A DNA stretch of 40,791 nt from Candidatus Woesearchaeota archaeon. GTDB taxonomy: Archaea > Nanobdellota > Nanobdellia > Woesearchaeales > 0-14-0-80-44-23. The translations under genes were made by a program, and so were the position numbers. Below are positions 18,884-38,725 of this stretch, piece by piece; the stretch's first letter is position 1, and each line of letters starts with the position of its first letter. The notes under the pieces are model-generated. The model saw nothing but the letters and a program-made list of their open reading frames with translations. It was not told where the DNA came from and made no database searches. The stretch covers positions 1-40,791 of the forward strand of contig JAPLZQ010000095.1 of assembly GCA_026394965.1 (NCBI GenBank). The letters run 5' to 3'.

Positions 18884-19906
18884 ATGAATAAGTTCAAGAA
18901 AGGATTAGTTTCACTCATTGCAGCTGCAACAATATGCGCCGGAGGAGTTTTTTCCCAGCCAGCACACACAATAAAAAGCGAGCAGCAGGATGTTCCGTAT
19001 GAGACAATTGAAGAGACTCTTGGCGGATTCACAGGCGGATGGAGCAATGAATCTGAGATGACTCCTGAGGAAAAGGAGAGCTTTGGAAGATACACAAAGG
19101 CATTTGAGACATTCATGACTCCTGAACTCTTAATTGAACTTACAAAGAATTATTCTGATATGGAGAAGCTTAACCTCACCCTTTCAGACGGCGACAAGAA
19201 AAACGGAGAATTCATCAACGGAAAGGAAACGGTTTATTTCATAAACAACGGCAAAGAGTCCCCTCTTGTGTGCAAGATTGAGGATGACAAGGGCAATTTC
19301 TATTACGGATTCTCAAACCTTTCAAAATGCCTTTCAGATGGCATTGAGAAGCAGGTTCATGACACAGCATCAAGAAAGACAGAGGAGGAATTCTCGAAGC
19401 TTGAATGCGCATGCAACGGCGGAGTGAATTTCAATTACAATTTTGCAAGGGCGCTAATCAACGGCGAAGGGCTGTACAAGCCGCGCCTTGACTCAATTGT
19501 TTCTGCAATTGAGCTTGCCACAACTGACGCAACAGGACTACAGAGGAAAAATGCACTTCTGAAGCTTTCTGACGGAATTTACTCATACCCGGCTAATTAT
19601 GAAATCAATGATGAAAGGACATTCCGGCTTTACACCGGCGATGATGTTAACATTGCAATGAGGATGGATACAGGATATTTTGATGCTCAAAAGAAAGTTT
19701 TCTGCGGGCACATATCATTTTACAACAAGACAGACAACACAAATAAATTCAAGCAGAAGATAAGCGCTGCAAATTACACTTATACAGGGCAGGAGGGGCA
19801 AATCCATTTCAATCTGGCAAAGGACATTATGGAATGCGCAACTCAGGAATACCTTGAAAGGCATCCTACAGAGGACTTTACAACAAACAGCCCCAAGGCA
19901 GAGTGA
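18884..19906 (+). CDS. secreted protein of unknown function
   Basis: N-terminal MNKFKKGLVSLIAAATICAGGVF is signal-peptide-like. No recognisable domain. It is the first gene of a three-gene, translationally coupled set. Confidence 0.75.
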   Translation: MNKFKKGLVSLIAAATICAGGVFSQPAHTIKSEQQDVPYETIEETLGGFTGGWSNESEMTPEEKESFGRYTKAFETFMTPELLIELTKNYSDMEKLNLTLSDGDKKNGEFINGKETVYFINNGKESPLVCKIEDDKGNFYYGFSNLSKCLSDGIEKQVHDTASRKTEEEFSKLECACNGGVNFNYNFARALINGEGLYKPRLDSIVSAIELATTDATGLQRKNALLKLSDGIYSYPANYEINDERTFRLYTGDDVNIAMRMDTGYFDAQKKVFCGHISFYNKTDNTNKFKQKISAANYTYTGQEGQIHFNLAKDIMECATQEYLERHPTEDFTTNSPKAE

Positions 19907-19917
19907 GGCGAAAAAAA

Positions 19918-20090
19918 TGAGTATTGATGATAAGATTGATTGGCGTGTTGGTATGGCTTCGGTAAGCATACTAAGAAATTTCGTTGAGGAATACATAAAA
20001 GCCAGCACGATAAAAGGCAAGTATGAAGGTAAGTTTGAAGCACTAATCCAATATTCAGAACTGACAGATTATTTAAAAAAGAACGAGTGA
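19918..20090 (+). CDS. small soluble protein (57 aa), unknown function
   Basis: The ATG at 19918 is preceded by GAGTGAGGCGAAAAAA (stop plus SD). The same cassette precedes the next gene. The listed ORF start at 19854 would overlap the upstream gene. Confidence 0.55.
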
Positions 20091-20107
20091 GGCAGTGAGG
20101 CGAAAAA

Positions 20108-23100
20108 ATGAAAAGCAAAATCTCAAAATCATTACTCTTCATATTCATGTTTGCAGCAGTTTTGCTGCTTTCAGCAGGATTTGCATCTTCAGCATGCGAT
20201 CCATTAGTTGACCCCGACTGCGGGGATGACCCAATTGAGCCGCCATGCATAGGATGCTATCCAACACCCACCCCAACGCCAACTCCAACGCCTATTGTGC
20301 TTTGCGGAAACGGAGTAATAAACACAGGGGAGCAGTGCGAGATGCCTGGAACATCAAACAATAATTACTGCGTCCAGTCAATGCATCAGTGCTCAGGGAA
20401 TAAATACGGAAGCAGGGACATGTACGGAAACTGCAACTCAGCATGCGGATGCTCCAATGATGCATTCACATATTCCTGTTCTTTCGGGAACTGCGGCTCA
20501 GAGTGTGATGCAGCCCATTCCTGCGCCTCAACTGACTGCGACTACCTTGACGGATGCCAGGGAAATTATTATTATGATTACCATGATGTTTCAAACAGCT
20601 GCACAGGAGACTGCGGCTGCACAGAAAATTCATGCACAGCTTACACTGCCACGGTAAACGATCCAAGATGCGTTGAGTGCAATGTTGATTCGGACTGCGA
20701 CAGCAGGGACAAAACTTACTGCTCAGGAGATTCTGTTGTGAGCGTAGAGGGAAAGTGTGTGAGCCACAAGTGCACAGATTCTTCACCATCAATTGTTGAG
20801 AACTGCAATTCCCTTGACAGAGATTACTGCGAGGGAACATCAATAAAGAATGATGACGGATACTGCTCATTTGGCGAATGCAAGGTAACAAAGACAAATG
20901 TGCTTAATTGTAATGATGGGCTTTTCTGCAATGGAGTTGAGTCCTGCAGTGCGGGAAACTGTGTTTCTGGAAGTTCTGTTGATTGCTCAGCAAATGATAT
21001 TTTTGGAATTTCATCTTGCAATAATGTTCCTGATGGCAATTCTTTGACTTGGGATTACCGGGCTTCTTTTGATTCAACATGCAACGAAGCAAGTGATTCG
21101 TGCACTGCTGGTATTTATTCAATAAGCCATTCGTGCAGTGTTAATTCCTGCGGAGCAGAGTGTGATGCTGCCCATGGATGTAGTGCTACTGATTGTGATT
21201 GGAAGGATGGTTGTGTTGGGAAGGATTATTATGATTATTCAGATGTTTCTAATAGTTGCTTGGGTGGTTGTTCTTGCACTGATAATGTGTGTGCTGCTCC
21301 GGTGATTTCATATAATGATGCCAGGTGTGGTGAGTGTGTTTCTGATTCTCAGTGTGATTATTTGGATTCTGATTTTTGCAGCGGGGATTCTGTTTTTCAT
21401 GTTGAGGGGAAATGCATAAATTATGATTGTGTTTCAGGGACAGCTGCTTTGGTGCAGAACTGCAATTCCCTTGACAGGAATTTCTGCGAGGGAACATCAA
21501 TAAAGAATGATGATGGTTATTGCGCTTCAGGGGCTTGTTATGTTTCTACATCTACTGTTATGAATTGTAATGATGGGCTTTTCTGCAATGGGGTTGAGTC
21601 CTGTAGTGCTGGAAACTGTGTTTCTGGAAGTTCTGTTGATTGCTCATCAAATGATATTTTTGGAATTTCATCTTGCAATAATGTTCCTGATGGTAATTCT
21701 TTGACTTGGGATTATAGGGTTTCTTTTGATTCAACTTGTAATGAGGCAAGTGATTCGTGCACTGCTGGTATTTATTCAATAAGTCATTCATGCAGTGTTA
21801 ATTCCTGCGGAGCAGAGTGCGATGTGGTTCATGGATGCGCAGACACATACTGCGACTGGAAGGACGGTTGCGTTGGAAAGGACTATTACGATTATTCCGG
21901 AGTAGAGAATTCATGCCTTTCTGGCTGCGCATGCGAAAACAACGTATGCAGGGCTCCAACAATATATTATGATGATGAAAGATGCAGCGACCATTGCCTT
22001 AATGACAATGACTGCAATTACCTTGATTCAGATTTCTGCAGCAGCGATTCTGTAATGCACATTGATGGAATGTGCATAAGCGGAATCTGCTCAAGCAGCA
22101 CTCCATCTCTTGTAGGGGACTGCACACTGCTTGACAGGAACTTCTGCGAAGGAAGCATTGTCAAGGAGGATACTGGCTACTGCGCAAATGCAGAGTGCAG
22201 GATAACCACATCAATTCTAATGAACTGCAATGATGGGCTTTTCTGCAATGGGGTTGAGTCCTGCAGTGCTGGGAACTGTGTTGCTGGAAGTTCTGTTGAT
22301 TGTTCGGGTAATGATGTTTTTGGGGTTTCTTCTTGTAATAATGTTCCTGATGGCAATTCTTTGACTTGGGATTATAGGGCTTCTTTTGATTCAACATGCA
22401 ACGAGGCAACTGACTCCTGCACAGCAGGAAGTTCTGCAATAAGCCATTCGTGCAGCGTTGATTCCTGCGGAGCAGAGTGCTCAAACGGGCAGGTTGAAGT
22501 AAGGAGCTGCACATACGGGGGAATCCAGAGCAGGAGCTGCACAGACAGCTGCATCTGGGGAATCTGGAGCAATTGCGAAAATGAGGGCGTATGCACACCA
22601 GGAACAAAGGAAAGCAGGGAATGCGGCTACTGCGGCACATCTGAACGGGTATGCCTTGAAAATTACCAGTGGGGCTTATGGGGCTCATGCTCAGGCGCAG
22701 GAGTATGCGTTTCAGGATTAGTTGACTATGAAATGTGCGGAAAAGGCGGCTCAAGATTCAGGACATGCGATGATTCATGCTACTGGGGCGCATTCAGCAA
22801 CTGCACAGATGAAAAGGAGTGCTATCCAGGAACAATTGAAGAGGAAAAATGCCTTATCTTTGGGGTAAGGAAAAGGATATGCCAATCAAACTATTACTGG
22901 GGCTCATGGAGTTCCTGCACTTTCCCAAGAGGGGACATTGCAATAAACCAGCTTCAGATAATAAATGAGGACTGCATCCAGCCAGGAGAGGATTTGACTG
23001 CGCTTGTTGACTTCAGCATGCTTGGATACCATGAGCAGGAAGTCAAGATAACAGCAGTCATACCAGACCTTTCCTTAAGAAGCAGGATAGGTCCGATTGA

Positions 23101-23275
23101 TGTTGAGGCAGACGGCGAAATCTCAAGGGTTTTGCTCCTGACTCTCCCAGAGGACACGCCCGAGGGAGTTTATGACGTTAGATTCACTATCAATGACGAC
23201 ATAAGAAGGGTAAAGCACAGAAGCATCATAGTGAAAAAAACCTGCTGCAGAAGTTGCTCATGCAGCAGCTGCTGA
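20108..23275 (+). CDS. giant cysteine-rich secreted repeat protein
   Basis: Domain order:
- signal peptide;
- (PT)6 linker;
- CGNGVINTGEQCE motif;
- three ~219-aa Cys-rich repeats;
- four short WGxWSxC repeats;
- a CARDB-like C-terminal domain;
- a CCRSCSCSSC tail.
No TM anchor. Confidence 0.9.
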   Translation: MKSKISKSLLFIFMFAAVLLLSAGFASSACDPLVDPDCGDDPIEPPCIGCYPTPTPTPTPTPIVLCGNGVINTGEQCEMPGTSNNNYCVQSMHQCSGNKYGSRDMYGNCNSACGCSNDAFTYSCSFGNCGSECDAAHSCASTDCDYLDGCQGNYYYDYHDVSNSCTGDCGCTENSCTAYTATVNDPRCVECNVDSDCDSRDKTYCSGDSVVSVEGKCVSHKCTDSSPSIVENCNSLDRDYCEGTSIKNDDGYCSFGECKVTKTNVLNCNDGLFCNGVESCSAGNCVSGSSVDCSANDIFGISSCNNVPDGNSLTWDYRASFDSTCNEASDSCTAGIYSISHSCSVNSCGAECDAAHGCSATDCDWKDGCVGKDYYDYSDVSNSCLGGCSCTDNVCAAPVISYNDARCGECVSDSQCDYLDSDFCSGDSVFHVEGKCINYDCVSGTAALVQNCNSLDRNFCEGTSIKNDDGYCASGACYVSTSTVMNCNDGLFCNGVESCSAGNCVSGSSVDCSSNDIFGISSCNNVPDGNSLTWDYRVSFDSTCNEASDSCTAGIYSISHSCSVNSCGAECDVVHGCADTYCDWKDGCVGKDYYDYSGVENSCLSGCACENNVCRAPTIYYDDERCSDHCLNDNDCNYLDSDFCSSDSVMHIDGMCISGICSSSTPSLVGDCTLLDRNFCEGSIVKEDTGYCANAECRITTSILMNCNDGLFCNGVESCSAGNCVAGSSVDCSGNDVFGVSSCNNVPDGNSLTWDYRASFDSTCNEATDSCTAGSSAISHSCSVDSCGAECSNGQVEVRSCTYGGIQSRSCTDSCIWGIWSNCENEGVCTPGTKESRECGYCGTSERVCLENYQWGLWGSCSGAGVCVSGLVDYEMCGKGGSRFRTCDDSCYWGAFSNCTDEKECYPGTIEEEKCLIFGVRKRICQSNYYWGSWSSCTFPRGDIAINQLQIINEDCIQPGEDLTALVDFSMLGYHEQEVKITAVIPDLSLRSRIGPIDVEADGEISRVLLLTLPEDTPEGVYDVRFTINDDIRRVKHRSIIVKKTCCRSCSCSSC
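20477..22450 (+). repeat. three in-frame tandem repeats of 657, 657 and 660 nt
   Basis: Units start at the Cys codons 20477, 21134 and 21791, and the array ends before 22451. Each unit begins CS(F/V)xxCG(S/A)EC and ends SISHS/AISHS. Confidence 0.95.
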
Positions 23276-23418: not shown

Positions 23419-23436
23419 CCGAAAGTTTTATATAGG
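23419..23436 (+). promoter_or_regulatory. BRE/TATA promoter (CCGAAAGTTTTATATAGG)
   Basis: About 140 nt upstream of the ATG at 23577, which implies a long 5' UTR. A second TATA-like CTATATAA lies at 23400. Confidence 0.5.
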
Positions 23437-23576: not shown

Positions 23577-24824
23577 ATGAAAAATTTTTGGTTAATTTTG
23601 TTTGTTGTTGGAATTATAACAACAGTATTTGTTAGCGCACTGCCAACAGTAGAACAGCTGAAGATAAACGGCGATGTCTTTGAGACTGGAGACACATTAG
23701 TTGTTGAAAGAGGAGAGACACTTGACATCAAGGTTAAGCTTCAGGCAGAAAATGTTGAGAAGAATATAGAAGGAGATGCAGTTATTCTTGGTTATGAATA
23801 CAATGACCATGAATCAATCTCAGACTCAACTCACCTATTCGACATGGAAGCAGGCGATACTGTCTACAAGACTATGCAGATAAAGGTGCCAGAGAAGACA
23901 GAAAAGGACTTCTACGACTTGAGAATCAGGTTCGGCACAAGGACAGAAGACGCATTTGAAGGAAGATACAGGCTTCACATTGTTGAATCAAGACATGATG
24001 TTGTCATAAAAGACGTCGTTTTGAGCCCAGAAGGAACAGTAAAGTCCGGAAGAGCTTTGCTCGCAATTGTAAGAGTGAAGAACATGGGCGCAAAGGACGA
24101 AGACGGAATAAAGATCAAGGTTTCAATACCAGACCTTGGAATCTCAGGCTCTGAATACATTGACGAGCTCAAGGCAGGAGAGTCAACATCCTCAGAAGAG
24201 ATATACCTCAAGATACCAACATGCGTTGCATCAGGAAGTTATGCAGTAAAGGCATCAATTGAGTATGATGAATCTTATGAAGAATCAACATACACAACTG
24301 AAATTGACATAGTTGAAGAGGATGTCTGCAAGGCAAAGGCTACAACTGTTGAAGAGAAGACAGAAATAATGATAGGCGCAGTAAGCCAGTCTGTCAAGAG
24401 AGGAGGAGCAGGAGCAGTCTATCCAATCACAATAAAGAACGCAGGAAACTCAGCACAGACATATATAGTGTCAGTTGCAGGAGTAGATGACTGGGCATCA
24501 GTCCAGATATCACCTAGCGCTGTGTTCATCGTTCAGCCAGGCGAGCTGAAATCAGCTTATGTCTACCTATCCCCTAGAGAGAACGCAGCTGAAGGCGAAC
24601 ACGTGTTTAGCATAAAGGTTGGATCAGCAGGCGAGGAGAAGCAGATTCCGGTCAGTGTAGTGGTCTCAGGAAAGCCAGCCAACTCTTGGACAAATGTCAA
24701 GAGAGGGCTTGAAATTGCTGGGATCGTCTTGGTTGTTTTGCTTGTAATATTGGGCATCATACTTGCCTTAAACAGGCTTGGCGGCAAAGAGCACAAGGAA
24801 GAAGAGAACCAGACCTACTATTAA
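23577..24824 (+). CDS. membrane-anchored CARDB-like surface (S-layer-like) protein
   Basis: Signal peptide, three beta-sandwich-like modules (VRVKNMGAKDEDGIKIKVSIPDLGISGSEY...; ITIKNAGNSAQTYIVSV...), and a C-terminal TM helix GIVLVVLLVILGIILAL. Confidence 0.85.
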   Translation: MKNFWLILFVVGIITTVFVSALPTVEQLKINGDVFETGDTLVVERGETLDIKVKLQAENVEKNIEGDAVILGYEYNDHESISDSTHLFDMEAGDTVYKTMQIKVPEKTEKDFYDLRIRFGTRTEDAFEGRYRLHIVESRHDVVIKDVVLSPEGTVKSGRALLAIVRVKNMGAKDEDGIKIKVSIPDLGISGSEYIDELKAGESTSSEEIYLKIPTCVASGSYAVKASIEYDESYEESTYTTEIDIVEEDVCKAKATTVEEKTEIMIGAVSQSVKRGGAGAVYPITIKNAGNSAQTYIVSVAGVDDWASVQISPSAVFIVQPGELKSAYVYLSPRENAAEGEHVFSIKVGSAGEEKQIPVSVVVSGKPANSWTNVKRGLEIAGIVLVVLLVILGIILALNRLGGKEHKEEENQTYY

Positions 24825-25077
24825 ATTATTTATATTTTTTAATTATTATTTTTTTTATTTTTTCTCATTAAATTTTTCTAATTAAATGCCTGTTTTCTTT
24901 GCGTATTGTTATGAACTGATTTAGTTTAGTATATAATAAATCCCGCTTATTTTTGGCTTGCAGGGCTTTTACATAATGGATAACAAAAGCCCAAAAATAT
25001 TCCGGACATCTATTGCCTTCATTTATTCTCCTTTTTTATTGCGCCCTGAAAAGCCATTTTTCAGCACGCCTTAAAAC

Positions 25078-25094
25078 CAAAAGATTTATATATT
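25078..25094 (+). promoter_or_regulatory. BRE/TATA promoter (AAAAGATTTATATAT)
   Basis: Same core as at 18798 and 28281. It lies about 110 nt before the ATG at 25206, which has the SD GGGGGTG. Confidence 0.55.
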
Positions 25095-26994: not shown

Positions 26995-28128
26995 TTAAAT
27001 TCTTATTATCCCAAGTTCGCTGAGGGTTTCATAGATTATCCCTATTGCAAATATCAGGATAAGGATTGCGCAGCCCCAGTTAGGGAGATTGACTGAATAT
27101 TCCGGCTCGTGGTCTCCGTGGGTTTTTGCCTTTACATAGGAAAGTATCAGGAGAATTCCAGTGATTCCTCCTGTAAATGCGCCTGTTACTGAAAGCACTT
27201 TTATGAAGTTCTTAACAAATAGGAAAAGCCCCAGGGGAACAAAGCATGTTAAAAACCACGCCCAAAGCCTGTTCTTGTGATAATCATATATGTACATGTT
27301 TTTCAGCGCAAGCCCTAATGCAAGGGATGCTGTTGTCATTGAAAGCACAGCAAAGCTTGCCGCAAATACTCCCGCCGATTTTCCAACATATTCCATTATT
27401 GACTCAACTGCGCCCTCGCTTGTCCATATGCCTGCTGCCCCAACAACGCTTAATGCAAACACAGAATATACTGCAAGGGGAATAAGAGTTCCTATTACCA
27501 CTGCCTTCCTGAATTCTTTCCTGTTTGCCCTGAGCTCCTCCCTGAGTTCAGGGATGCAGGTTGTCCCCATGAAAGCAAAGAGAACAACTCCGTAGGGCAC
27601 AAGAAGCCTTTTTGCATCAAATCCGCTGAGGTTATTTGCGCTTATTTTCGGGACTGCGAGGAAGAATATTACCGCAATCATTGCTATAACAATTGTCACG
27701 ATTATCTTCTCTGAGCGCTCAATCATCTTCAATCCTGAATAAATCAAAAAAGAGATTACCCCGAAAAAAAGAAGGCTGTTTACAAAAGGGACTCCTCCGA
27801 ATAGAAATGTAAGGAATTCCCCCTCTTTTATCAGGTATGCAAGCATTGCCCCGTATATGCTTAGCACCATTGAGATTCCCATAATCTTCTTTGCGCCTTT
27901 TCCAAGGTACTTGTTTACATACCCTGCAAGCTGGTGGTCGCCGTTTGTCCTTAGGACAATCTCACCAGCACAGAGGTTAAGAGTGAGCATAACAATCCCG
28001 ATGATAATTATCACAAAGAGTCCAGTCAGGAACCCTGCCCTTGAGACAACATAGGGTATTCCGAGAATGCCTGCGCCTATTGTGCAGCCGACAAGCGTTG
28101 CTATTGCTTCAAAAGTGTGTTTTGGCAT
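26995..28128 (-). CDS. amino acid permease (aromatic/hydroxy amino acid permease-like)
   Basis: 377 aa with about 11 TM helices. The N-terminal FEAIATLVGCTIGAGILGIPY is typical of Aa_trans/Trp_Tyr_perm type carriers. Confidence 0.8.
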   Translation of the reverse strand: MPKHTFEAIATLVGCTIGAGILGIPYVVSRAGFLTGLFVIIIIGIVMLTLNLCAGEIVLRTNGDHQLAGYVNKYLGKGAKKIMGISMVLSIYGAMLAYLIKEGEFLTFLFGGVPFVNSLLFFGVISFLIYSGLKMIERSEKIIVTIVIAMIAVIFFLAVPKISANNLSGFDAKRLLVPYGVVLFAFMGTTCIPELREELRANRKEFRKAVVIGTLIPLAVYSVFALSVVGAAGIWTSEGAVESIMEYVGKSAGVFAASFAVLSMTTASLALGLALKNMYIYDYHKNRLWAWFLTCFVPLGLFLFVKNFIKVLSVTGAFTGGITGILLILSYVKAKTHGDHEPEYSVNLPNWGCAILILIFAIGIIYETLSELGIIRI

Positions 28129-28562: not shown

Positions 28563-28567
28563 TGGTC

Positions 28568-30393: not shown

Positions 30394-32430
30394 GTGGGAA
30401 GTTCCGGTTTTGAATTCTTTACTGATGCAATAAATGTTACTCCCTCCACAGTTGGAAGCTGGACCGCTGTTGATGTTTCTTCTTATGTTCCAAGCGGGGC
30501 AACAGGAGTTCTTCTCGCTTTTGTTAATAATGGGGCTGCAAACTACATGATTGTTGCAAGGCATCCTGACAGCACGGATAATTTTTACACTGCAAGCACC
30601 ACTGATGTAAGGATAACATCGCAAATATACACTGTAACTTCAATAAATAGCAGCAGAATTTTTGAAGCAGCCAGAGAAAATAGCGCTTGTAATATATACC
30701 TCTTGGGATACACTGATGAAGAATTTGGCCTGTTTACAAATATGGTTAACATTACAAGTCTTTATTCAGGAACAGGAACCTGGCAGGATATGAATGTGAG
30801 CAGTTATGTTCCGGCAGATGCAAAGGGAATAATACTTAGGGTTTATTCTTCAACAGCTGCAAACGTAATTGTTGCAAGAGCTGATGGGAGCACTACAAAC
30901 TGGAATGATTCTCAGGTTATTGCACAGGGCTGGTACACAATAATAATAAAAAACAACAATCAGGTTGTTGAAGGTTATCGCAATTCAGCAAATGGACGCT
31001 TTTTTCTTATAGGATATATAAATGGGACAGCTCCTGTAACAATGTTTACAGACCCTTATGATGTTTCAACAGGCACTGCAGGCAGTTGGGTAAATACTGA
31101 TGTTGGAGGTTATACAAGCACTATTGCAGATGGGGCAATCCTGGTAAGAAAGAATACGGCAAACTCTGTTAAGGCAGGGCAGTCAAGAACTGTGGGAAGC
31201 ACTAATAACTGGTATTCGTCTTCAGATATAAGAAATTATATGGCTCATTGGGAATTTAGCGGACTTAATGGGACACAGTGCTTTCAGCAGAAGATAGAAG
31301 CAAATACCCAGGATTATTATATTATTGGATATGCTGAACCAGAAATTCCCCTAGCGATAAATTTTTCAAACATCACAAGTTCAGAAAATAATTTTTACTA
31401 CAACGCAACCCTTCTCGGCTGGTGCAATGCGACCCAGCCGGACATGCAGAATGTCAGTTACTATTACAAATGGTATTTGAATGGAATCCTTAACAGCACA
31501 GGGCAGACCGCATATTACCCTCCAGAAATATTAGTAAATATTGCAAACATAACCTCAGATAAACTTTCAATCGGGCAGAATTGGACTCTTGAGTGCACTG
31601 CTTATGACGGAATCGTTAATTCCTCAGCGCTCAATTCAACAGAAATAACGATTGTTGACATAAATTCGCTGCCCAATATCACTTCAATATTTGTGGATGA
31701 CGAAACATTTTCCCCTGCAGGCGAGATAGACCTTATTGCAGGAGATTTAAGGCAGGTGCTCTGCAACGGGACTGCTGATGACCCAGATGGCTTCTCTGAC
31801 ATTGACAATGTAACAGCAGTATTTTATGCGAGCGGAAACGGAACATTGCCCACAGACCCAGAAAACAACAACACCCTTTACCAAAACAATTCCTGCTCAC
31901 TATCTGCAGGATATGACACAACAAAAAAGGACTTCAACTGCTCATTTTCGCTTTTCTACTATGCCCAGAATGGGACCTGGACATGCAATGCAACTGTTAA
32001 TGATACAAAATCAGAAGCTTCATCATCTATAGCAACTTCAAACGTAAACAATCTCATTGCCCTCAATGTATCCTCGCTTGAAATTAATTATGGAAATCTC
32101 GCAGCAGGAGGCGAGTCTGCATCTTCAGTTGTTTTTTACATAACGAACCTTGGAAACACAAAAATTGACCTTTCATTAAACGGAACAAACATGAGCTGCG
32201 CAATAGGTGCAATAGGCGCATCATATCAGCATTACAACATAACCGGGACAGACCAGGCATATTCCCAGATGAAAGCGCTTTCAAATTCACCCTTCCTTTC
32301 CTCGAACTTTGACCTTAATAAGAGAATCACAGCTGATTCCGACAGGACAACATACTGGAGAATTCAGGTTCCTTCGGGAGTAAAAGGAAAATGCACAGGA
32401 GTAATAAGCCTTTCAGCTCAGCAGGGCTAA
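30394..32430 (+). CDS. sequon-dense secreted glycoprotein, long paralogue (start uncertain)
   Basis: The first canonical start is GTG 30394. The frame is open from 30301 and there encodes a signal-peptide-like LKIKTNFFFGLVLIEIFVLLTLFQAKSVVGT. The protein has three ~100-aa N-terminal modules. Its C-terminal ~250 aa are shared with the 316-aa protein. I count 31 sequons. Confidence 0.85.
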   Translation: MGSSGFEFFTDAINVTPSTVGSWTAVDVSSYVPSGATGVLLAFVNNGAANYMIVARHPDSTDNFYTASTTDVRITSQIYTVTSINSSRIFEAARENSACNIYLLGYTDEEFGLFTNMVNITSLYSGTGTWQDMNVSSYVPADAKGIILRVYSSTAANVIVARADGSTTNWNDSQVIAQGWYTIIIKNNNQVVEGYRNSANGRFFLIGYINGTAPVTMFTDPYDVSTGTAGSWVNTDVGGYTSTIADGAILVRKNTANSVKAGQSRTVGSTNNWYSSSDIRNYMAHWEFSGLNGTQCFQQKIEANTQDYYIIGYAEPEIPLAINFSNITSSENNFYYNATLLGWCNATQPDMQNVSYYYKWYLNGILNSTGQTAYYPPEILVNIANITSDKLSIGQNWTLECTAYDGIVNSSALNSTEITIVDINSLPNITSIFVDDETFSPAGEIDLIAGDLRQVLCNGTADDPDGFSDIDNVTAVFYASGNGTLPTDPENNNTLYQNNSCSLSAGYDTTKKDFNCSFSLFYYAQNGTWTCNATVNDTKSEASSSIATSNVNNLIALNVSSLEINYGNLAAGGESASSVVFYITNLGNTKIDLSLNGTNMSCAIGAIGASYQHYNITGTDQAYSQMKALSNSPFLSSNFDLNKRITADSDRTTYWRIQVPSGVKGKCTGVISLSAQQG

Positions 32431-32434: not shown

Positions 32435-32523
32435 TATAGGCAAGGACATTAATGTTCGTTATTATTTACCTTGCCTATATCCAGAAGACTTTAACAAATT
32501 CCATACAAATATTAAAGTCTTCT
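32435..32523. promoter_or_regulatory. two consecutive perfect stem-loops
   Basis: TATAGGCAAGG (32435-45) pairs with CCTTGCCTATA (32469-79). AGAAGACTTTAA (32483-94) pairs with TTAAAGTCTTCT (32512-23). They lie between the 678-aa gene stop and the 393-aa gene start. Confidence 0.7.
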
Positions 32524-32557: not shown

Positions 32558-33739
32558 ATGAATAAAAAAAATGCGGCAATGATTTTTTTAGCGCTTGCGC
32601 TTATCCTTTTTTCATATAACACATTTGCAAGTTTGGGAGTGAGCCCCGCAACATTGAGGTTTCCAAACCTTCTCAGGGGCGGATTTTCCCAGAGAAGCAT
32701 TCTCATAAGCACAATGTCAGATGCAATGAAAGTGGATATTCATGCAGAGGGCAATATATCATCATGGCTCAGCTTTTCAAATTACACAATTAATGTTTCA
32801 GCAGGGAATTCAAAGCCGATTAAGGTTTTTGTAAAGCCGCCTATTGACGTCCCAAACGGCAACTACAGCGGGTATATTGTTGTAACAAGGAAGCCCCTTG
32901 AAACGCAGGCTCTCTCAACAGGCATTGGAAATTTAGTCATAATGAGCGTGAATATCCCTGTTGATGTTGTTATAACTGACATTGAAACAATTGACTGCAC
33001 TGCAAACTCATTTTTAATCTCTGATGCTGAAGAGGGAAGCCAGCCCAAATTAGCAGTTTCAATAATAAATTCGGGCAATGTCAGGATGAGCCCGGTTATA
33101 AGGGCAGACATCTGGGACCAGGAAAAAGAGAATGCATTGGAATTCCTTGAATTCAATGCAGATGAGATTCTTCCAAGCGTTGAGCAGCAGTTTGAATTTT
33201 CAATGCCCCTGCAGGAGCTTCCTGTCGGGCAGTACTGGGCTCAAATGTCTGTTCCGGAATGCAGGAATTCCGAACTCTTGACATTTGACATCTTGAAGAA
33301 AGGCTCGCTTACCACAAGCGGAAAGCTTATCCAGATAAAAAATTTGCCATGGCTGAATTTAGGCGCTACTGCAAAAATCAGCGCGATATTCAAGAATGAC
33401 GGGAAAAAGGATGTTTCAGCCAGGTTTAAGGGGATTGTATCAATTGACGGGCAGATTATAAAAGTTCTTGAGTCAGAGCAGTTAAACATTCCCGTTGGAG
33501 AAACAGTTGACTTAAACACTTTTTTCAAGCCCGAAGCCATGGGAAGGTATGTGATATCAGGCAAGGTTTACTATGACAGGAAGGTCACATACGAGCTTTC
33601 CTCAATTCTTAATGTGATTGAAGGGAAAAAAGGCATAAGCGGGATAACAATTGCATACATTGCGATAATTGCAATAAGCCTTTTCCTGCTTTTCATCATT
33701 TTCAAGAAGAGGAGGAAGAAAAGGGTGAGAAGGTTCTAA
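32558..33739 (+). CDS. membrane-anchored protein with tandem Ig-like modules
   Basis: Sec-type signal peptide ending TFA. The LGVSPATLRFPNLLRGG...ILIST pattern and a second similar module both look like beta-sandwich folds. C-terminal TM helix plus KKRRKKRVRRF tail. Confidence 0.8.
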   Translation: MNKKNAAMIFLALALILFSYNTFASLGVSPATLRFPNLLRGGFSQRSILISTMSDAMKVDIHAEGNISSWLSFSNYTINVSAGNSKPIKVFVKPPIDVPNGNYSGYIVVTRKPLETQALSTGIGNLVIMSVNIPVDVVITDIETIDCTANSFLISDAEEGSQPKLAVSIINSGNVRMSPVIRADIWDQEKENALEFLEFNADEILPSVEQQFEFSMPLQELPVGQYWAQMSVPECRNSELLTFDILKKGSLTTSGKLIQIKNLPWLNLGATAKISAIFKNDGKKDVSARFKGIVSIDGQIIKVLESEQLNIPVGETVDLNTFFKPEAMGRYVISGKVYYDRKVTYELSSILNVIEGKKGISGITIAYIAIIAISLFLLFIIFKKRRKKRVRRF

Positions 33740-33755: not shown

Positions 33756-35516
33756 TTAAGGATACTTTTTTGAGAAGTCAATATAATAGGCGTCCATTAT
33801 TTTTATCTGATAATTCACCTTTACAGTTGTAAGCTCGGGCTTGGTTGAGCGTTTTATTGTGTATTCTGCAATGAAACTCTCCCCTTTTGACAATTCAGTG
33901 GCGCTTATCATAAGCATGTTCCCGCTAATCTCATTTTTTATGTCTCCAGATGCTTTCTTTGAAATGCTTACCTCTCCGACAATCTCCGAGTTTTCAGGAA
34001 TTACCTCAGAAAGGGCAAGGTTTTCAAGCATTGCACTTCCTAAATTAAGCACGCTTATCTGAATCCTGAACTTTGAGTCCTTGCAGGGGAAAATGCGCTT
34101 TGAGATTTCAAGGGGGTCCCTGCTCCTTCTCTTTTCTGCAAGCCATGCTTTAATCCATATGAATAATAGGAGCAGAATAAGAATGATTAAATTTATTGCA
34201 ATAAGCGAAATTACAGATGTAGGGGGTATAAATTTCGGAAGCTCTGTTCTCGGCGTTTTAACTGACTCAAGAATTATCTCATACTTCCCGCCGAGTCTTC
34301 TTTCATATGAAATCCTTATGTCCTGCTGTTCATCCTTGTCCAAATCCACAAGCGTTTCAGCGGGCTTTCTGAAAAGGAATCCGGGACCGCTGAAGAATCC
34401 TATGAATATTGAATCTCCTGACATGTTTGTTAAGGTGAGGAAATAATTCTTGTCATTGTAGATGAAGAACCATATTGGGCCTTCATACGTTGTGACATTG
34501 AAGATGTTTTGGAGCTTGAAGTTTCCGATGTAAATTATCTCTGCCCGGGTAAACCTTGCCGCTTCTTTAGGGGTAAGCTCCTCAACTGGCTTATTTGTAA
34601 TCCCGCTTTCATTTTTATTTTCTCTTATGTATTTCGAGATGAAGACGCTTCCCTTTGCTGCATCTCCCTCCCCCCCTGTCTCATTCCCCATGCTGCCCTG
34701 AGATTCGTTTGTTGTTCCTGCAACTCCTCCCGTTCCTCCTCCCTCATCTCCTGTTTCAATCACTTCCAGAGGAATCACATTAAGAGTGAATATCTCATGG
34801 ATTGCTGAGCAGGCATCGCTTATTACTATTGTAATTATGAATGTTCCAGTATCATTTGCCTGAAAGCTGATAAGCCCGCTTGAATTGTCTATTGTGAAAA
34901 GTGCGCTGTTGTCAGTGAATGAAAGGGAATCCCCGTCAGGGTCGCTTGCTATCACCTTATAGATGAAATAATCACCCTTGTTTATCGTGAATGAACTGAT
35001 TGGGTTTATCAGCGGAGGGCTAGGAGGGCTGTTCCCGAAGCAGTACCGAAACTGCCCGGCATCGCTCCAGTTGCTGTAATTGGCGCTGTCAAAAGCCCGG
35101 ACTCTCCAGTAATAATTGATAAAAGAGTATGACACTATCGGGTTCGTGTTTGTCTTTTCAGGGGTTTCAGATATTCCCGTCTGGTTCACAAGAGTCCCTT
35201 CAGGCGAGAAATTAAGATTGTTTGCAAGAATGAATTCATATGTAACAGAATCCCCGTTTGGGTCAATTGTGTTGTTCCAGAAGAAATTTATGCTCTCATT
35301 GTATGTTAGGGAGTCGTTTTCAGGAAGATAAATATTCGGCTTTAAAGGCGGGACATCTATAACATTCACTCCGGATGATGCAAATCCCGTTATTTTAAAT
35401 CTGCTTTCGGAATTGAAGAATACTGCAAACAGGAATACTGCAGAAAGAAAGCCAATCAGCAGGGCAAATGAAAGCGCGCTCTTGTTAAGGGCGCCCAAGC
35501 GTCCAAAGCCAGCCAT
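33756..35516 (-). CDS. bitopic surface protein with Fn3-like and cadherin-like modules (586 aa)
   Basis: Trimmed to the ATG at 35516 (MAGFGRLGALNK...), 1 nt after the upstream stop. Domain order:
- TM helix;
- YYWRVRAFD Fn3-like module;
- ASDPDGDSLSF module;
- Gly/Thr linker;
- second TM helix;
- ~125-aa DUF11/CARDB-like C-terminal domain. Confidence 0.8.
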   Translation of the reverse strand: MAGFGRLGALNKSALSFALLIGFLSAVFLFAVFFNSESRFKITGFASSGVNVIDVPPLKPNIYLPENDSLTYNESINFFWNNTIDPNGDSVTYEFILANNLNFSPEGTLVNQTGISETPEKTNTNPIVSYSFINYYWRVRAFDSANYSNWSDAGQFRYCFGNSPPSPPLINPISSFTINKGDYFIYKVIASDPDGDSLSFTDNSALFTIDNSSGLISFQANDTGTFIITIVISDACSAIHEIFTLNVIPLEVIETGDEGGGTGGVAGTTNESQGSMGNETGGEGDAAKGSVFISKYIRENKNESGITNKPVEELTPKEAARFTRAEIIYIGNFKLQNIFNVTTYEGPIWFFIYNDKNYFLTLTNMSGDSIFIGFFSGPGFLFRKPAETLVDLDKDEQQDIRISYERRLGGKYEIILESVKTPRTELPKFIPPTSVISLIAINLIILILLLLFIWIKAWLAEKRRSRDPLEISKRIFPCKDSKFRIQISVLNLGSAMLENLALSEVIPENSEIVGEVSISKKASGDIKNEISGNMLMISATELSKGESFIAEYTIKRSTKPELTTVKVNYQIKIMDAYYIDFSKKYP

Positions 35517-35517
35517 C

Positions 35518-38496
35518 TTAACACTCGCCTCTATTCCTGAGAACAGAAAGGGCTTCTTCCCTGCTCCTGACTCTTTCCATTTCTGCTGCAAGCCTTCTGT
35601 CATTGAGGCTTTTTTTCAGCCAGATTGAAAAGTCATTTTTCTCAAAATTCACGTGATAATTAAAGGTCTCAGAATCCATGCTTTCAAGGGCATTCTCAAG
35701 TTCACTTACATTTTTCAGAACCATTCCATTGTAAAGCCTAAGGAAATCCTTTTCATTCAGGGGCTCATCATCTGAAATTTTTTCTTTAGGTTCTCTTGGC
35801 AATGCCCTTGCGCTGTTTTTTTTCAGGAGCTCACTCTTGTCCCTTACTATTTTCTTAGAATCTTCATTAAGTCCGTCAAGGGGAAGCGAGCTTATTATCA
35901 ATGCACGCTCGTCTGCCTGTCCTATCAGATTTTTCCCTGAAAAACTATAATCTGAAGCATAGGAATAAGGGCGGCTTTCTTCATTTAAGCCCTTTTCAAG
36001 CTCTGAGCTTTTTGGGAGTGTACTTTCTATTATGTCATCTATGTCATCTTCCCTGTTCCTTCCAATCCTGAAGTAATAGGCAAGGAGAAGCCCAACAATT
36101 ATCACGCCAATTATTATTCCCGCGTATTTTGCATTTCCCTTTATGCTGTTGAAAACCGAATTTCCAGTGAGCGGGCTTGTTTTTTTATCCTTTCCTTCTG
36201 TCAGGAGGATTGTCTTTATCCCCGAAAGCTCTGATTCTCCTGTCTTTTCCTTGATATAAAATGCTATTTCCAGTTTTTCTCCCTCGGATATTGAACTGTA
36301 TTTCCAGCTTATTATCGGATCGTTTTCTATAATCTGGTATCCCGGAGTGAGGAATTCCAGCATTGAGGAATCCTCTGCAACTGATTTTGGTATTATCACC
36401 ACAATTTCGCTGTTGTTTACTGCTCTGCTGAAAGAGAGGGTTTCAGAAACAAGGGTGTATTCCTCTGTTGAGGATTCATATATTACGCTTAAACTGACTG
36501 GCTTTATCCTTGTGAAAAATATTCCCTGAAGTTCTGATGTTTCAGACATGTATTCAAGGTCAGAGGCGTATTCGCTCCTTGCTTTTGAAATGGCTTCTGC
36601 TATGTCCTCTGAGCCTGCCTGAACCCCGAACTCATTCATATTCTCTGTCCTTATGTCAATCGGGACTGATTTTTCAATTGATTTTATTGAGAGCTCCTGC
36701 CTTGCAAGGTTTGACTTAAGTTCCTCCTCATTTGCGCTTTTTGACTTAAGCTGATTAAGCTCAGAATATATGCTTTCAAGCCTTGATTTGGCATCTTCAA
36801 CATCCTTAAGGAGCCCTATTTTTTCCATAAGGGCTTTGTCTCCCTTTTCCAGAAGGTTCTTCTCCCTCGCTAAAATCTTCTGCATTGATGAGTCAGCAAG
36901 ATTTATCGCATCATCAATCTTTTTCAGAATTGTTGGCGAAAGAGTTGAGTTTCCCTTATTGCTGCTCTTTGTGGAGATTGCATATGATTCAGCTGAAAGA
37001 GCACCCTCATTATCCGCCTTGTCAACTGCTGAAACAGCATAGTAATAAGTTGTTCCTGAAGCCACATTTGTGTCAGCATAGCTGTTTCCTGATGAGTTGG
37101 CGTAAAAGTTGAGCAGGGAAACTCCTGAAGAGGTGCTTCTGTATATTCTGAATCCCTTGACCTCCTCCCCGTCATACCTCCATGAAAGCCTTATGCTTCC
37201 GTCACTTGCGCTGAATGCCTCTATAACAGGGGTTGGCGGCTTTATTGTGTCCACGAGGAATACCTTTCCTTCTTTTATTATGCTGCCGGTAATCCCCCAG
37301 TAATCTGTTGCAGAGAAGCTGAATGAGCCAACCTGGTTGCCCCTGTCGCCCTCTATTATCATGAATCCGTTCCAGATGTTCCCTGAGCCGCTCAGCGGTA
37401 TGGGATATGCTGATGAGCTTCCCAGCTGGTAATTCAGGATTGGGGTTGACTGGACATTCTTTGAGGTTGTAAGAGTCACTTCATAGACGCCCTCTTTCAG
37501 GGGAGATGATTTTGAGATTTCAACTCTGGCAGAGGGCGGAAGGCTTACCTCAAATCTTATCGTGTAATTCTCAGCCATCCTGTTTCCGTAAAGGTCTGTG
37601 CAGCTTATGTAGTAATTGTAGTTCCCTTCTGAAAGCCCTTCCATCTGGTAGGAATGGGTAATCCGGTTATCTGTATGCATTGGTGACATTAGGAGATACG
37701 TTCCATTTTCCCTGCTTTGCCTGCATTCAGATTCCTCGCTTGTTATCACCGTCAATGTTGCATATGATGATACAACTGCGCTCCTTGGCGAAAAATCAGT
37801 TATTATGGGGGGCGTTGTGTCAATAGTTATAGGAACTGAATAGGACTGAGGCATTGTGTTATTGTAGGAATCAGCGCATTTCACAAAGAACTCCATGCTT
37901 CCTTCTGACAATGTTGCGTTGTAGTAATGCTTCTGCCCTGCTCCCAAAAGCTCTGCCTCCATCAATTCATAGCTTTTATCAATGTCTGAAAAAGAGCCCC
38001 TGCATGTTGAGTTCTCATTTGTAGTTATCGCAATCTGGATTTTCGTGCTGTTCAAGGTATTAGATGGATAAACTGAAACTATCTCAGGCGGGCTTATGTC
38101 AAGGCTCAAAAGGACTTTTCCTGCCTTGAATGCGCTCTCAAGAGAGGATGTTCCGTTGAAGAGAGTTGCTGTTATGAAATAGTCGCCCTGTGCTGTTGCA
38201 GTGAATATCCGGGATTTACTAATCGAATAGATTCCTGAGGAGTAGGAGAATTCAGAATCTGAAAATGTGATTTCAGATGGTGCAGCAATGTTGCCGCTTG
38301 ATATTACTGATATTGAGCCGTTGAAGGGATTGTTTGCATCAATTGAGAAGAGCACAGCATTCTCTCCCAGGAGAATATTGGAGTTCACTATTATCTCAAT
38401 TCCCGCGCTTGCAGAGAGGGAAAGAATTATTGTAATTAAAAGTGCCCGCGCCAGAAATAATGTCTCCGTTCCCAGTCCAGCTGTTGTTTTTCTCAT
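35518..38496 (-). CDS. giant bitopic surface protein (992 aa)
   Basis: Domain order:
- signal peptide;
- several Ig-like modules;
- a clear Fn3 module (IRLSWRYDGEEVKGFRIYRS...TTYYYAVSAVDKADNEG);
- a coiled-coil segment;
- TM helix IIIGVIIVGLLLAYYF;
- a ~183-aa C-terminal tail. Confidence 0.85.
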   Translation of the reverse strand: MRKTTAGLGTETLFLARALLITIILSLSASAGIEIIVNSNILLGENAVLFSIDANNPFNGSISVISSGNIAAPSEITFSDSEFSYSSGIYSISKSRIFTATAQGDYFITATLFNGTSSLESAFKAGKVLLSLDISPPEIVSVYPSNTLNSTKIQIAITTNENSTCRGSFSDIDKSYELMEAELLGAGQKHYYNATLSEGSMEFFVKCADSYNNTMPQSYSVPITIDTTPPIITDFSPRSAVVSSYATLTVITSEESECRQSRENGTYLLMSPMHTDNRITHSYQMEGLSEGNYNYYISCTDLYGNRMAENYTIRFEVSLPPSARVEISKSSPLKEGVYEVTLTTSKNVQSTPILNYQLGSSSAYPIPLSGSGNIWNGFMIIEGDRGNQVGSFSFSATDYWGITGSIIKEGKVFLVDTIKPPTPVIEAFSASDGSIRLSWRYDGEEVKGFRIYRSTSSGVSLLNFYANSSGNSYADTNVASGTTYYYAVSAVDKADNEGALSAESYAISTKSSNKGNSTLSPTILKKIDDAINLADSSMQKILAREKNLLEKGDKALMEKIGLLKDVEDAKSRLESIYSELNQLKSKSANEEELKSNLARQELSIKSIEKSVPIDIRTENMNEFGVQAGSEDIAEAISKARSEYASDLEYMSETSELQGIFFTRIKPVSLSVIYESSTEEYTLVSETLSFSRAVNNSEIVVIIPKSVAEDSSMLEFLTPGYQIIENDPIISWKYSSISEGEKLEIAFYIKEKTGESELSGIKTILLTEGKDKKTSPLTGNSVFNSIKGNAKYAGIIIGVIIVGLLLAYYFRIGRNREDDIDDIIESTLPKSSELEKGLNEESRPYSYASDYSFSGKNLIGQADERALIISSLPLDGLNEDSKKIVRDKSELLKKNSARALPREPKEKISDDEPLNEKDFLRLYNGMVLKNVSELENALESMDSETFNYHVNFEKNDFSIWLKKSLNDRRLAAEMERVRSREEALSVLRNRGEC

Positions 38497-38572
38497 TTTA
38501 AACGAATTATTTTTTCCGCTTGCAATTCTGAAGCGGAATTCAAATATTCATTCAGAAAAGTATTTTTCATCA

Positions 38573-38725
38573 TACCTTCATCTTTGAAATCAGCCCGTTG
38601 TCTTTTTTGACTGAGTCCTCAACTGCCTTCTGCAGGTATTTCTTAAGAGTTGTTCCCTTAAGGAAGGCAATAACCTTCGCTTTTGTGTGCAGCTCGTCTT
38701 CCAAATCCATGTTTATCTTTTTCAT
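38573..38725 (-). CDS. ribbon-helix-helix (CopG-like) small protein, 50 aa (not in ORF track)
   Basis: My translation is MKKINMDLDELHTKAKVIAFLKGTTLKKYLQKAVEDSVKKDNGLISKMKV. The beta-strand/helix/helix pattern is typical of RHH regulators. It lies 76 nt upstream of the 992-aa gene on the same strand. Confidence 0.55.

Follow-up and report, generated by a model that had tools for sequence, protein, structure and literature searches.

Two independently conserved cell-surface gene modules lie side by side in a Woesearchaeota genome

Two gene modules in a 20-kb island

The subject of this study is a 20-kb island of surface-protein genes (18.9 to 38.7 kb) in a 40,791-nucleotide stretch of DNA, hereafter the window, which is contig JAPLZQ010000095.1 of assembly GCA_026394965.1 from a Candidatus Woesearchaeota archaeon, a tiny archaeon of the symbiotic (DPANN) type. 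Woesearchaeota are among the most widespread uncultured groups of archaea; to our knowledge, nothing is known of their envelope, and no protein by which a DPANN archaeon attaches to its host has been identified experimentally. The original prediction, made from the sequence of the window, had treated the island as one dedicated system of about ten exported proteins. Comparison with relatives shows that it is two independently conserved cell-surface gene modules side by side and not one apparatus. Module A spans 18.8-26.9 kb and has p415 at its core, and Module B comprises seven genes at 28.3-38.7 kb (s67, p316, p678, p393, p615, p992, and s51). The window has a GC content of 41%, and the closest homologues of its conserved genes are found in metagenome-assembled genomes (MAGs) of Candidatus Woesearchaeota / Nanoarchaeota (DPANN). 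The features of the locus are collected in Table 1.

The surface or envelope nature of the genes, as originally proposed, is supported. According to the map of open reading frames (ORFs) and to hydropathy, all of the large ORFs between 18.9 and 38.7 kb except one permease encode exported or membrane proteins, with a signal peptide or a transmembrane (TM) anchor. Signal-like hydrophobic segments are located at the N termini of p340, p1055, p415, p566, p316, p393, and p992 and at residues 44-62 of p615, and TM anchors are seen in p415 (residues 380-398), p566 (four TM segments), p393 (363-381), p615 (464-482), and p992 (791-809). No enzyme was found, as had been claimed: besides the permease, Pfam and NCBIfam recognize only domains of the immunoglobulin (Ig)-like kind (CARDB, NPCBM_assoc, FixG_C, Big_9, Big_3_3, and Fn3-like). 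Sequons for N-glycosylation are enriched in p316 (17 against 6.7 expected), p678 (31 against 14.3), p615 (15 against 6.7), and p566 (13 against 4.8), and not in p415, which has one, or in p1055, which has one against 13 expected.

Table 1. Coordinates of the genes, domains, promoter motifs, and structured elements of the island and its flanks (nt, nucleotides; aa, amino acids)
Feature	Position	Strand	Description
AglB/STT3 oligosaccharyltransferase	14631..17480	-	Pfam STT3 2e-28; conserved left neighbour of Module A
GGR-like FAD oxidoreductase	17582..18685	-	Pfam FAD_binding_3; divergent from p340
BRE/TATA consensus, p340	18796..18809	+	88 nt before ATG
p340	18884..19906	+	340-aa secreted protein, 7 Cys, 6 sequons; signal-like N-terminus; lineage-specific Module A member
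p1055	20108..23275	+	secreted, 11.6% Cys, about three repeats of ~220 aa, no TM anchor, sequon-depleted
C-terminal domain (CTD) of p1055	22925..23242	+	CARDB-like; ends ...GVYDVRFTINDDIRRVKHRSIIV; paralogue of p415 D1 and D2
BRE/TATA consensus, p415	23421..23434	+	156 nt before ATG
p415	23577..24824	+	signal peptide, three Ig-like beta-sandwich domains, C-terminal TM, acidic cytoplasmic tail ending YY
Hairpin downstream of p415	24941..25006	+	16-nt arms, 81% complementary
BRE/TATA consensus, p566	25079..25092	+	1 mismatch; 127 nt before ATG
p566	25206..26906	+	polytopic, 4 TM; Ig ectodomain; sequon-dense Ser/Asn/Pro-rich extracellular loop
Trp/Tyr-family amino-acid permease	26995..28128	-	Pfam Trp_Tyr_perm 1.9e-30; in 25/85 loci; frequent right neighbour of Module A
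BRE/TATA consensus, s67-p316	28279..28292	+	followed by ~280-nt leader
s67	28562..28762	+	small, cytoplasmic, no TM; first Module B gene; 87% identity to L086/L087 orthologue vs 35-64% for neighbours
p316	28764..29684	+	306 aa from TTG 28764; secreted, two beta-sandwich domains, sequon-dense; short core-only paralogue
Structured intergenic element downstream of p316	29760..29990	+	fold z-score -7.75; hairpin with 25-nt arms at 29781-29832
p678	30301..32430	+	three N-terminal repeats of ~106 aa (head), one further domain, C-terminal core paralogous to p316
Hairpin immediately downstream of p678	32435..32479	+	19-nt arms, 84% complementary
p393	32558..33739	+	signal peptide, all-beta ectodomain, C-terminal TM, basic tail; candidate Module B anchor
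p615	33756..35516	-	bitopic, Big_9 Ig ectodomain; coupled to p992; ORF open up to 35603; orthologues in L086-L091
DUF5752-like domain of p992	35530..35763	-	residues 912-989, ~75 aa; Pfam DUF5752 18.7 bits, below gathering threshold of 23
p992	35518..38496	-	signal peptide, Ig-like + Fn3 ectodomain, coiled-coil-like segment, TM 791-809, cytoplasmic tail of ~180 aa
s51	38570..38725	-	51 aa; head of s51-p992-p615 unit; 69-73% identical in orthologous cassettes
tRNA-Trp(CCA)	38994..39128	+	61-nt intron; Rfam tRNA 41.8 bits; aragorn -i; right boundary of Module B
DUF192 gene	39238..39603	-	Pfam; conserved right neighbour of Module A in relatives; in 36/85 loci

To study the conservation of the island we scanned the GTDB species-representative genomes with an alignment of the p415 family, which yielded 147 confirmed matching stretches, and fetched 80 of these with 10-kb flanks; all proteins of the window were then compared with the fetched loci by tblastn. 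(Loci of relatives are designated by L and their proteins by P.) Module A proved to be conserved in about 80 species of Woesearchaeota/Nanoarchaeota, with a p415 homologue kept in every one of the 80 loci. The gene order that recurs is AglB(-), GGR(-), a large gene on the plus strand, p415, a p566-like gene, often the permease(-), tRNA-Trp, DUF192(-), and p139(-). In the 26 loci that extend at least 8 kb to either side of the p415 homologue, AglB lies within 10 kb of it in 20, and the DUF192 gene and a p566-like gene in 17 each, and GGR is directly upstream of Module A in 39 of 85 loci. p340 is not a shared component of Module A; its homologues are confined to the nearest relatives (L001, L002, L006, and L007), and it has no Pfam (E <= 0.1), NCBIfam, or PDB sequence match. 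Meanwhile, p316, p678, p393, p615, s67, and s51 gave no tblastn match within 10 kb on either side in the 80 Module A loci, and p992 gave a single weak partial match, in L074 (49 bits). A GTDB scan with the permease as the central anchor returned no match, and an exact-sequence look-up of p316 and p415 in a contig collection returned no record.

Synteny of Module B extends to at least four further lineages, in which it is located elsewhere in the genome. L086/L087 and L090 have the complete series s67-p316-p678-p393-p615-p992-s51; in L088/L089, whose contig ends a short way upstream of p678, the genes from p678 to s51 follow in the same order, and in L091 the stretch from p316 to p992 is retained, with s67 and s51 not detected. 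The proteins of L086/L087 are 87% (s67), 58% (p316), 64% (p678 core), 50% (p393), 38% (p615), 35% (p992), and 73% (s51) identical to those of the window, the last three again being encoded on the minus strand. A metagenome scan with a p316 alignment found 144 relatives, of which 80 were fetched, and partners were counted in the 27 loci of at least 12 kb. At least one Module B partner (p393, the p992 ectodomain, s51, or a small DUF5752-like protein) accompanies the p316-like gene in 20 of the 27, and, as a control, only 1 of 85 Module A loci contains a match to any Module B partner. Each metagenome locus holds one to three genes with the p316 core, mostly one or two. Thus, the position of Module B in the genome is variable: in the window it lies between the permease and tRNA-Trp, which in most relatives are only 100-300 base pairs apart, with DUF192 adjacent. 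The genes of the island are co-conserved in relatives rather than scattered, as had been anticipated, in two sets and not in one.

Could all of the approximately ten proteins nonetheless form one integrated 20-kb machine for the envelope and for attachment to a host? All of the products are exported or membrane proteins, and the two gene sets lie within about 35 kb of each other in three genomes: that of the window, the DRTY-6 MAG, in which L087 shares a 910-kb contig with L007 and is 35 kb from the p415 gene there, and that of L091. Strong promoters shared by the genes had also been cited, and a common consensus for the BRE (B recognition element) and TATA box, GAAAGWTTTATATA, does occur six times in the window against 0.07 expected. 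Four copies, in both halves of the island, lie upstream of p340, p415, p566, and s67/p316, at 88-283 nucleotides before the ATG; p678 and p393 are possibly downstream in the s67-p316 transcription unit. The remaining two copies are outside the island, at 4808-4821 (-), upstream of a 97-amino-acid ORF (4464-4757, -), and at 40433-40446 (-), upstream of a 139-amino-acid coiled-coil/helix-turn-helix-like ORF (p139; 39990-40409, -), which in relatives, too, is found beside DUF192. The motif is therefore the general strong BRE/TATA consensus of the organism and not a signal of the island. Given also that the 80 Module A loci lack the Module B genes, that Module B has other neighbours elsewhere, and that the ancestral arrangement has the permease, tRNA-Trp, and DUF192 adjacent, a single machine is contradicted and largely refuted by the synteny data, and we consider it very unlikely.

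At the other extreme, the island might be a loose neighbourhood of unrelated, fast-evolving surface genes at a site near AglB that merely tolerates insertions. The cargo of the slot after the permease does differ in L001, L002, and L007, and p340 is lineage-specific, but within each module gene order is kept across protein identities of 35-60%, adjacent genes are paralogous at the level of domains, and stop and start codons are coupled in two gene pairs. This coupling, noted at the outset, is real: the s67 stop codon TAA (28760-62) is followed by the TTG of p316 at 28764, and the region in which the p992 stop meets the p615 ATG reads TAAGATG. We give almost no credence to a chance assemblage of this kind.

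p415 and its paralogous partners in Module A

The p415 family comprises 142 homologous clusters of near-constant length (415-460 amino acids). Hydropathy places an N-terminal hydrophobic segment at residues 4-22 and the TM segment at 380-398, and the AlphaFold2 (AF2) model (pLDDT 81) contains three beta-sandwich domains (D1 to D3) and a C-terminal helix at 371-401. Pfam assigns CARDB, NPCBM_assoc, and FixG_C domains to the protein. In the family alignment a conserved acidic tail and an invariant Tyr-Tyr at the C terminus follow the TM helix; this tail may serve in sorting or anchoring and is perhaps what "PACE-CTERM" refers to in the name of an NCBIfam family to which p415 is related. That family, NF033506 (PACE-CTERM-PROT, putative S-layer protein), is a computationally defined family of Pace-/Woesearchaeota whose name is a prediction.

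The original view that no component maps to a system that can be named thus calls for a qualification. The closest named entity is NF033506, against which p415 scores 102.4 bits (E = 2.6e-29), a near miss of the curated cut-off (110); each of the 32 p415-family members tested also matches it, the best at 7.8e-34, and one p415 homologue is named "putative S-layer protein" by NCBI. What stands of the original statement is that this name is itself a computational prediction. The match is not full-length: it joins profile positions 287-621 of 627 to p415 residues 81-397, and because only the C-terminal ~335 positions, including the TM segment and tail, are covered, p415 is a shorter relative of NF033506. 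With its export and anchoring and its Ig-like architecture, p415 resembles the archaeal S-layer class, of which it lacks the extensive N-glycosylation. We regard it as a candidate membrane-anchored S-layer or stalk protein and as the best S-layer/anchor candidate for the whole order. Despite the proximity of AglB, the p415 family has almost no sequons.

The gene upstream of p415 encodes a protein of which only the last ~105 residues, the CTD, are conserved. The prediction had reported a module shared by p1055 and p415; the relationship, which involves the CTD of p1055, is weak in BLASTP (E = 6e-4) and clear with a CTD profile built from more than 40 orthologues, which matches p1055 at 4e-36, D2 of p415 at 5e-14, and D1 at 2e-5. 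Indeed, the profile matches D1 and D2 of the p415 homologue in all 80 loci. Of the 74 loci with room for it, 61 have an ORF with a CTD immediately before p415, and the CTD is always at the extreme C terminus, with a consensus tail in relatives of GxYDVRItvSNDxxRRVKHRxIxI. Otherwise the partner varies: in relatives it has 600-2400 amino acids and 0-11.6% Cys and is of a Big_9, cadherin-like, or Cys-rich type, with a signal peptide and no anchor. p1055 itself yielded no Pfam (E <= 0.1), NCBIfam, or PDB sequence match, and because no Pfam or NCBIfam family was found, the resemblance of its repeats to myxobacterial Cys-rich repeats, which we had presumed, was not confirmed.

Downstream of p415, the ectodomain of p566 is paralogous to D2-D3 of p415 (hhalign 93%), and in 44 of 85 loci the gene that follows p415 encodes an ectodomain like the N-terminal one of p566. 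Domain paralogy thus ties together the three core genes of Module A.

Predicted glycoproteins, anchored proteins, and structured elements of Module B

The p316 family (33 clusters), which like that of p678 is small, is characterized by invariant Cys residues and a median of 56 sequons per 1000 amino acids. The AF2 model of p316 (pLDDT 90.3) consists of an N-terminal helix and two beta-sandwich domains. The best Foldseek matches in the PDB are the biofilm matrix protein RbmA, SdrG, and the CFA/I tip adhesin, with TM-scores of 0.2-0.3; as no score exceeds 0.3, the similarity is generic to Ig folds. Pfam gave a weak, sub-threshold match to Calycin_like (1.4e-3) and NCBIfam none. Across the family the N terminus is a helix of 25-30 residues followed by an A-x-A-like site, which fits signal peptidase I better than the class III signal peptides of type IV pilus and archaellum systems.

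As had been reported, p316 and p678 are paralogues (48% identity over 259 amino acids, E = 7e-70). The orthologues of p678 share a C-terminal core (64-79% identity) and have unrelated N-terminal heads, which are beta-propeller-like repeats in P0126 and P0123 and LamG/DUF2341 in P0124; p678 of the window has no Pfam (E <= 0.1) or NCBIfam match. The candidate anchor p393 likewise has no Pfam match (E <= 0.1), and NCBIfam offers only an insignificant laccase hit (E 0.07). We considered whether p393 is a paralogue of p415, which was ruled out (hhalign probability 0.6%).

The orthologues of p992 are 35-47% identical to it, and a PDB sequence search recognizes only its Fn3 domain. Its cytoplasmic tail contains a DUF5752-like domain, for which the Pfam score is below threshold and the relationship is supported transitively because the closest homologues (P0171, P0175, P0188, and others) pass the threshold. 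Domains of this type are found in 2241 representative proteins at 50% clustering and are often duplicated; elsewhere they are fused to KaiC-like ATPases and to proteins with CarboxypepD_reg repeats and HerA/DUF87, and small stand-alone versions adjoin p316-like genes. In archaea the domain may serve generally as an adaptor that connects membrane proteins, on the cytoplasmic side, with KaiC/HerA-type ATPases.

Very small proteins had been proposed as partners of the large ones, and this holds in part. s67 is highly conserved, with no Pfam (E <= 0.1), NCBIfam, or PHROG match, whereas the 47-amino-acid ORF at 28419-28562 has no homologue in any of 169 loci and is probably part of the 5' leader. 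The regulator that had been described as a ribbon-helix-helix (RHH) protein, s51, is conserved in orthologous cassettes, and its homologues are also found next to p992-like genes in divergent loci; its match to RHH models falls short of the curated Pfam cut-off (ParD, E = 7e-4, 20.3 bits against 27.3; an Arc-like PHROG, 3e-3). Its sequence pattern and conservation agree with an RHH fold, and we regard s51 as a probable RHH regulator.

The long intergenic hairpins of the original description are real (24941-25006, 29781-29832, and 32435-32479). The one downstream of p316, AAAAACGGCGCT...AGCGCCGTTTTT, is 94% identical over 67 nucleotides to L091:11063-11129, which is downstream of the p316 orthologue there and is flanked by proteins only ~59% identical to those of the window. 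A partial second copy lies near the tRNA-Trp of L091 (L091:3462-3536), and the element of the window carries an insert of ~105 nucleotides with three similar small hairpins (AAGAAAT...ATTTCTT). A search of Rfam with the structured region at 29.7-30.0 kb found no family. The element could be a terminator or attenuator, a small RNA, or a repeat resembling a miniature inverted-repeat transposable element.

That near-identical hairpin, shared with L091 despite the divergence of the proteins, is one of several observations that could be taken to mean that Module B is an integrated mobile element or provirus, whose glycoproteins would be surface proteins of a virion or of the element. Module B adjoins a tRNA gene where most relatives have an empty site, its position differs between genomes, and it has an Arc/ParD-like RHH gene aboard. 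On the other hand, Pfam, NCBIfam, and PHROGs revealed no integrase, replication, packaging, or capsid gene in it; no att-like direct repeat of the tRNA flanks it; and no relative was found among the 2.9 million viral contigs of IMG/VR. Matches in PHROGs and BFVD were to generic Ig/Fn3 only, and the divergence of orthologous cassettes (35-87% identity) tracks that of host genes. A mobile origin of this kind we hold to be highly improbable.

Quite unlikely, in our judgment, is a second alternative, in which Module B would build a fibre or pilus by strand exchange independently of an ATPase, after the manner of the Sulfolobus threads, TasA and the archaeal bundling pili, or chaperone-usher pili, with p316 as the major subunit, p678 as the tip adhesin, and p393 as the base. 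The pairing of a short core-only paralogue with a long one that carries a variable head on the same core speaks for such a fibre, as do the presence of one to three core paralogues per locus, the absence of an assembly ATPase from the cassette, and a hairpin after the gene for the putative major subunit. In addition, an alternating stretch conserved at the N terminus of the p316 family (W-NVNATVNVTN) is modelled as non-strand in the monomer, and the CFA/I pilin and adhesin are among the weak Foldseek matches. But those matches include no subunit of threads, TasA, or bundling pili, and no TM-score is above 0.3; the monomer of p316 is modelled confidently with no obvious missing strand; and no chaperone, usher, or dedicated signal peptidase is present.

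The cassettes of L086/L087 additionally encode two paralogous, secreted, sequon-rich proteins of 256 and 230 amino acids (7295-8065 and 8336-9028), which end in ...YYFYVELQ and ...YYLYVELI, and a stand-alone DUF5752-like protein of 164 amino acids. None of the three has a counterpart as a separate gene in the window.

Envelope model and genomic setting

We think it probable, if by no means certain, that the island represents two separate, individually conserved cell-envelope modules, an S-layer-like anchor and canopy locus and a glycoprotein/adhesin cassette. Module A would be the core envelope locus of the lineage, fixed beside AglB and the GGR-like reductase. In it p415 would be the membrane-anchored base or stalk of an S-layer-like wall, on which the variable CTD protein, here p1055, would dock by Ig-Ig contacts of the paralogous domain, resulting in a constant anchor with an interchangeable outer face, a functional analogue of SlaB and SlaA. 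In Module B, p316 (the short form) and p678 (the same core with a variable head) would be secreted and very heavily N-glycosylated and would be retained on the cell by three Ig proteins with membrane anchors, p393, p615, and p992, forming an accessory glycoprotein or adhesin layer or a short fibre. The DUF5752-like domain of p992 may link this layer to the cytoplasm, and s51 may regulate the Module B unit. The design of a variable head on a constant domain is common to the upstream partner in Module A and to p678. The roles originally proposed (an anchored Ig protein, a docked Cys-rich protein, glycosylated secreted proteins, and TM connectors) are compatible with the domain architectures and with what the comparison of relatives shows.

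Several observations weigh against this model. The median number of sequons in the p415 family is one (79 members), the single sequon of p415 is in the cytoplasmic tail, and the ectodomain has only ~350 amino acids; both the low sequon count and the small ectodomain are atypical for archaeal S-layer glycoproteins. A Foldseek search of the PDB with the p415 model returned only generic tandem-Ig matches, to ciliary ASH/HYDIN proteins, integrins, and alpha-2-macroglobulin, with TM-scores of at most 0.3, and no known S-layer protein, pilin, or thread. In 13 of 74 relatives there is no upstream CTD gene and GGR abuts p415, and detection of Module B partners was incomplete among the divergent loci (of 27, 12 have p393 and 13 the p992 ectodomain). 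No ATG, GTG, or TTG precedes the in-frame segment of p678 that resembles a signal peptide, KIKTNFFFGLVLIEIFVLLTLFQAKSVVGT (30301-30393), the first canonical start being GTG 30394; since the orthologue P0122 has a normal signal peptide at the corresponding segment, the missing start implies near-cognate initiation (at CTG 30301 or ATC 30307) or a start that was recently damaged. Finally, we infer the functions of all of the components, the retention of p316 and p678 at the cell surface, and, from paralogy and adjacency only, the docking of the CTD on p415.

Given the near absence of its sequons, p415, if it is in the wall, would be an unglycosylated proximal element, and the glycan coat would come from p566, p316, p678, and p615.

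Among known systems, SlaA/SlaB of the Sulfolobales and a pair of proteins proposed for Nanobdella aerobiophila, modelled as an unanchored assembly protein and a TM-anchored Ig protein (bioRxiv 10.1101/2023.10.27.564410), resemble Module A: neighbouring genes code for a large secreted protein that lacks an anchor and for an Ig-rich protein anchored by a TM segment at its C terminus, and Ig-like folds make up both. No sequence or specific fold similarity of Module A proteins to SlaA/SlaB was detected. p415 is without the coiled-coil stalk of SlaB; N-glycosylation is heavy in SlaA/SlaB and the Nanobdella candidates, whereas p415 and p1055 are nearly sequon-free; and in Module A, in contrast to SlaA/SlaB, docking would be through an Ig domain that is a paralogue of those in p415, and the outer protein varies greatly from one species to another. 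S-layer proteins of DPANN archaea have yet to be determined experimentally (PMC5744192; bioRxiv 10.1101/2023.10.27.564410), and genes annotated as S-layer are among the most highly expressed in Woesearchaeota MAGs (PMC11606122), in transcripts that we could not assign to the p415 family. That report and the strong BRE/TATA consensus before p415 are at most indirect signs of the very high abundance expected of an S-layer protein. Our literature search found no work on the p415/NF033506 family, PACE-CTERM, DUF5752, or this gene cluster.

Module B is reminiscent of FimH-type tip adhesins, MSCRAMMs (microbial surface components recognizing adhesive matrix molecules) such as SdrG, and RbmA, in the two tandem beta-sandwich domains of p316 and in the exchangeable N-terminal head joined to the core in p678. 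It differs from them in having no sortase, usher, chaperone, or sorting signal of the LPXTG/PGF type, in that the head of p678 is N-terminal to a C-terminal core, and in that p316 and p678 are extremely sequon-dense. Pfam and NCBIfam identified no PilB/FlaI ATPase, PilC/FlaJ platform, or prepilin peptidase of a type IV pilus or archaellum in any ORF of the island. Makarova et al. inferred, from gene context alone, predicted secretion neighbourhoods of arCOG02884/arCOG01314, with the DPANN cluster cls.004306 "often next to S-layer-like proteins" (PMC5898192, PMC6393860); this system was set aside because its DUF4350 protein, vWA protein, and MoxR-type AAA+ ATPase are absent from the window by Pfam. 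A specific assignment to known S-layer proteins, pilins, threads, TasA, or viral glycoproteins was likewise rejected, the Foldseek matches being generic (p415 against the PDB; p316 against the PDB and BFVD).

A bolder proposal is that Module B, together with cassettes of RHH genes, giant surface proteins, and HerA found in relatives (see below), is an undescribed, ATPase-independent, heavily glycosylated fibre or adhesin array with exchangeable receptor-binding heads, borne by transmembrane Ig proteins whose cytoplasmic DUF5752 domain would couple surface engagement to KaiC/HerA-type ATPases, and used by Woesearchaeota to attach to hosts or sense contact. Module A, in which a paralogous Ig domain would join a constant anchor to a swappable canopy, would then embody a new construction principle for S-layers. 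We rate this as rather unlikely. The value of the analysis lies less in a surprising mechanism than in well-defined candidates for the question of the DPANN envelope and host attachment, an anonymous 20-kb stretch having become two defined, testable gene sets. The upstream partner in Module A offers an explanation of how the outer surface could vary over a constant anchor, and Module B is a plausible determinant of specificity for host or substrate. Both modules are targets for metaproteomics, for labelling by antibody or in cryo-electron tomography, and for prediction of complexes, and the CTD and the p316 core can serve as markers for cataloguing the diversity of DPANN surfaces in metagenomes.

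Turning to the surroundings, an N-glycosylation locus is located immediately to the left of the island, as originally described. By Pfam, it contains genes for UDP-glucose dehydrogenase, UDP-GlcNAc 2-epimerase, two GT2 glycosyltransferases, a DUF2304 protein, AglB/STT3, and the GGR-like FAD oxidoreductase, which is likely, by inference, a polyprenol/dolichol reductase, and it also encodes a flippase-like protein of the AglD C-terminal type (LPG_synthase_TM; cf. PMC5898192). On the right, tRNA-Trp was missed by a default ARAGORN scan and was found with Rfam and aragorn -i. In most relatives the homologous tRNA points the other way, a difference suggesting that an inversion accompanied the insertion of Module B.

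The slot after the permease has a different cargo in L001 (14117-21260), L002 (14120-21260), and L007, namely repeated units of two small RHH genes, a PKD/CarboxypepD_reg surface protein of more than 1100 amino acids, and a HerA/DUF87 ATPase, in some cases as a fusion with the surface protein. Giant fusions of a similar kind, P0210 and P0238, end in a DUF5752-like domain, as p992 does. These units look like a distinct, uncharacterised DPANN system of surface proteins and ATPases.

Finally, we note that many MAGs with the Woesearchaeota-type locus (for example, those of L006, L009, and L020) are titled "uncultured Methanosarcinales archaeon." Because of their gene content and closest relatives, this title is probably a taxonomic mislabel from the assembly pipeline.

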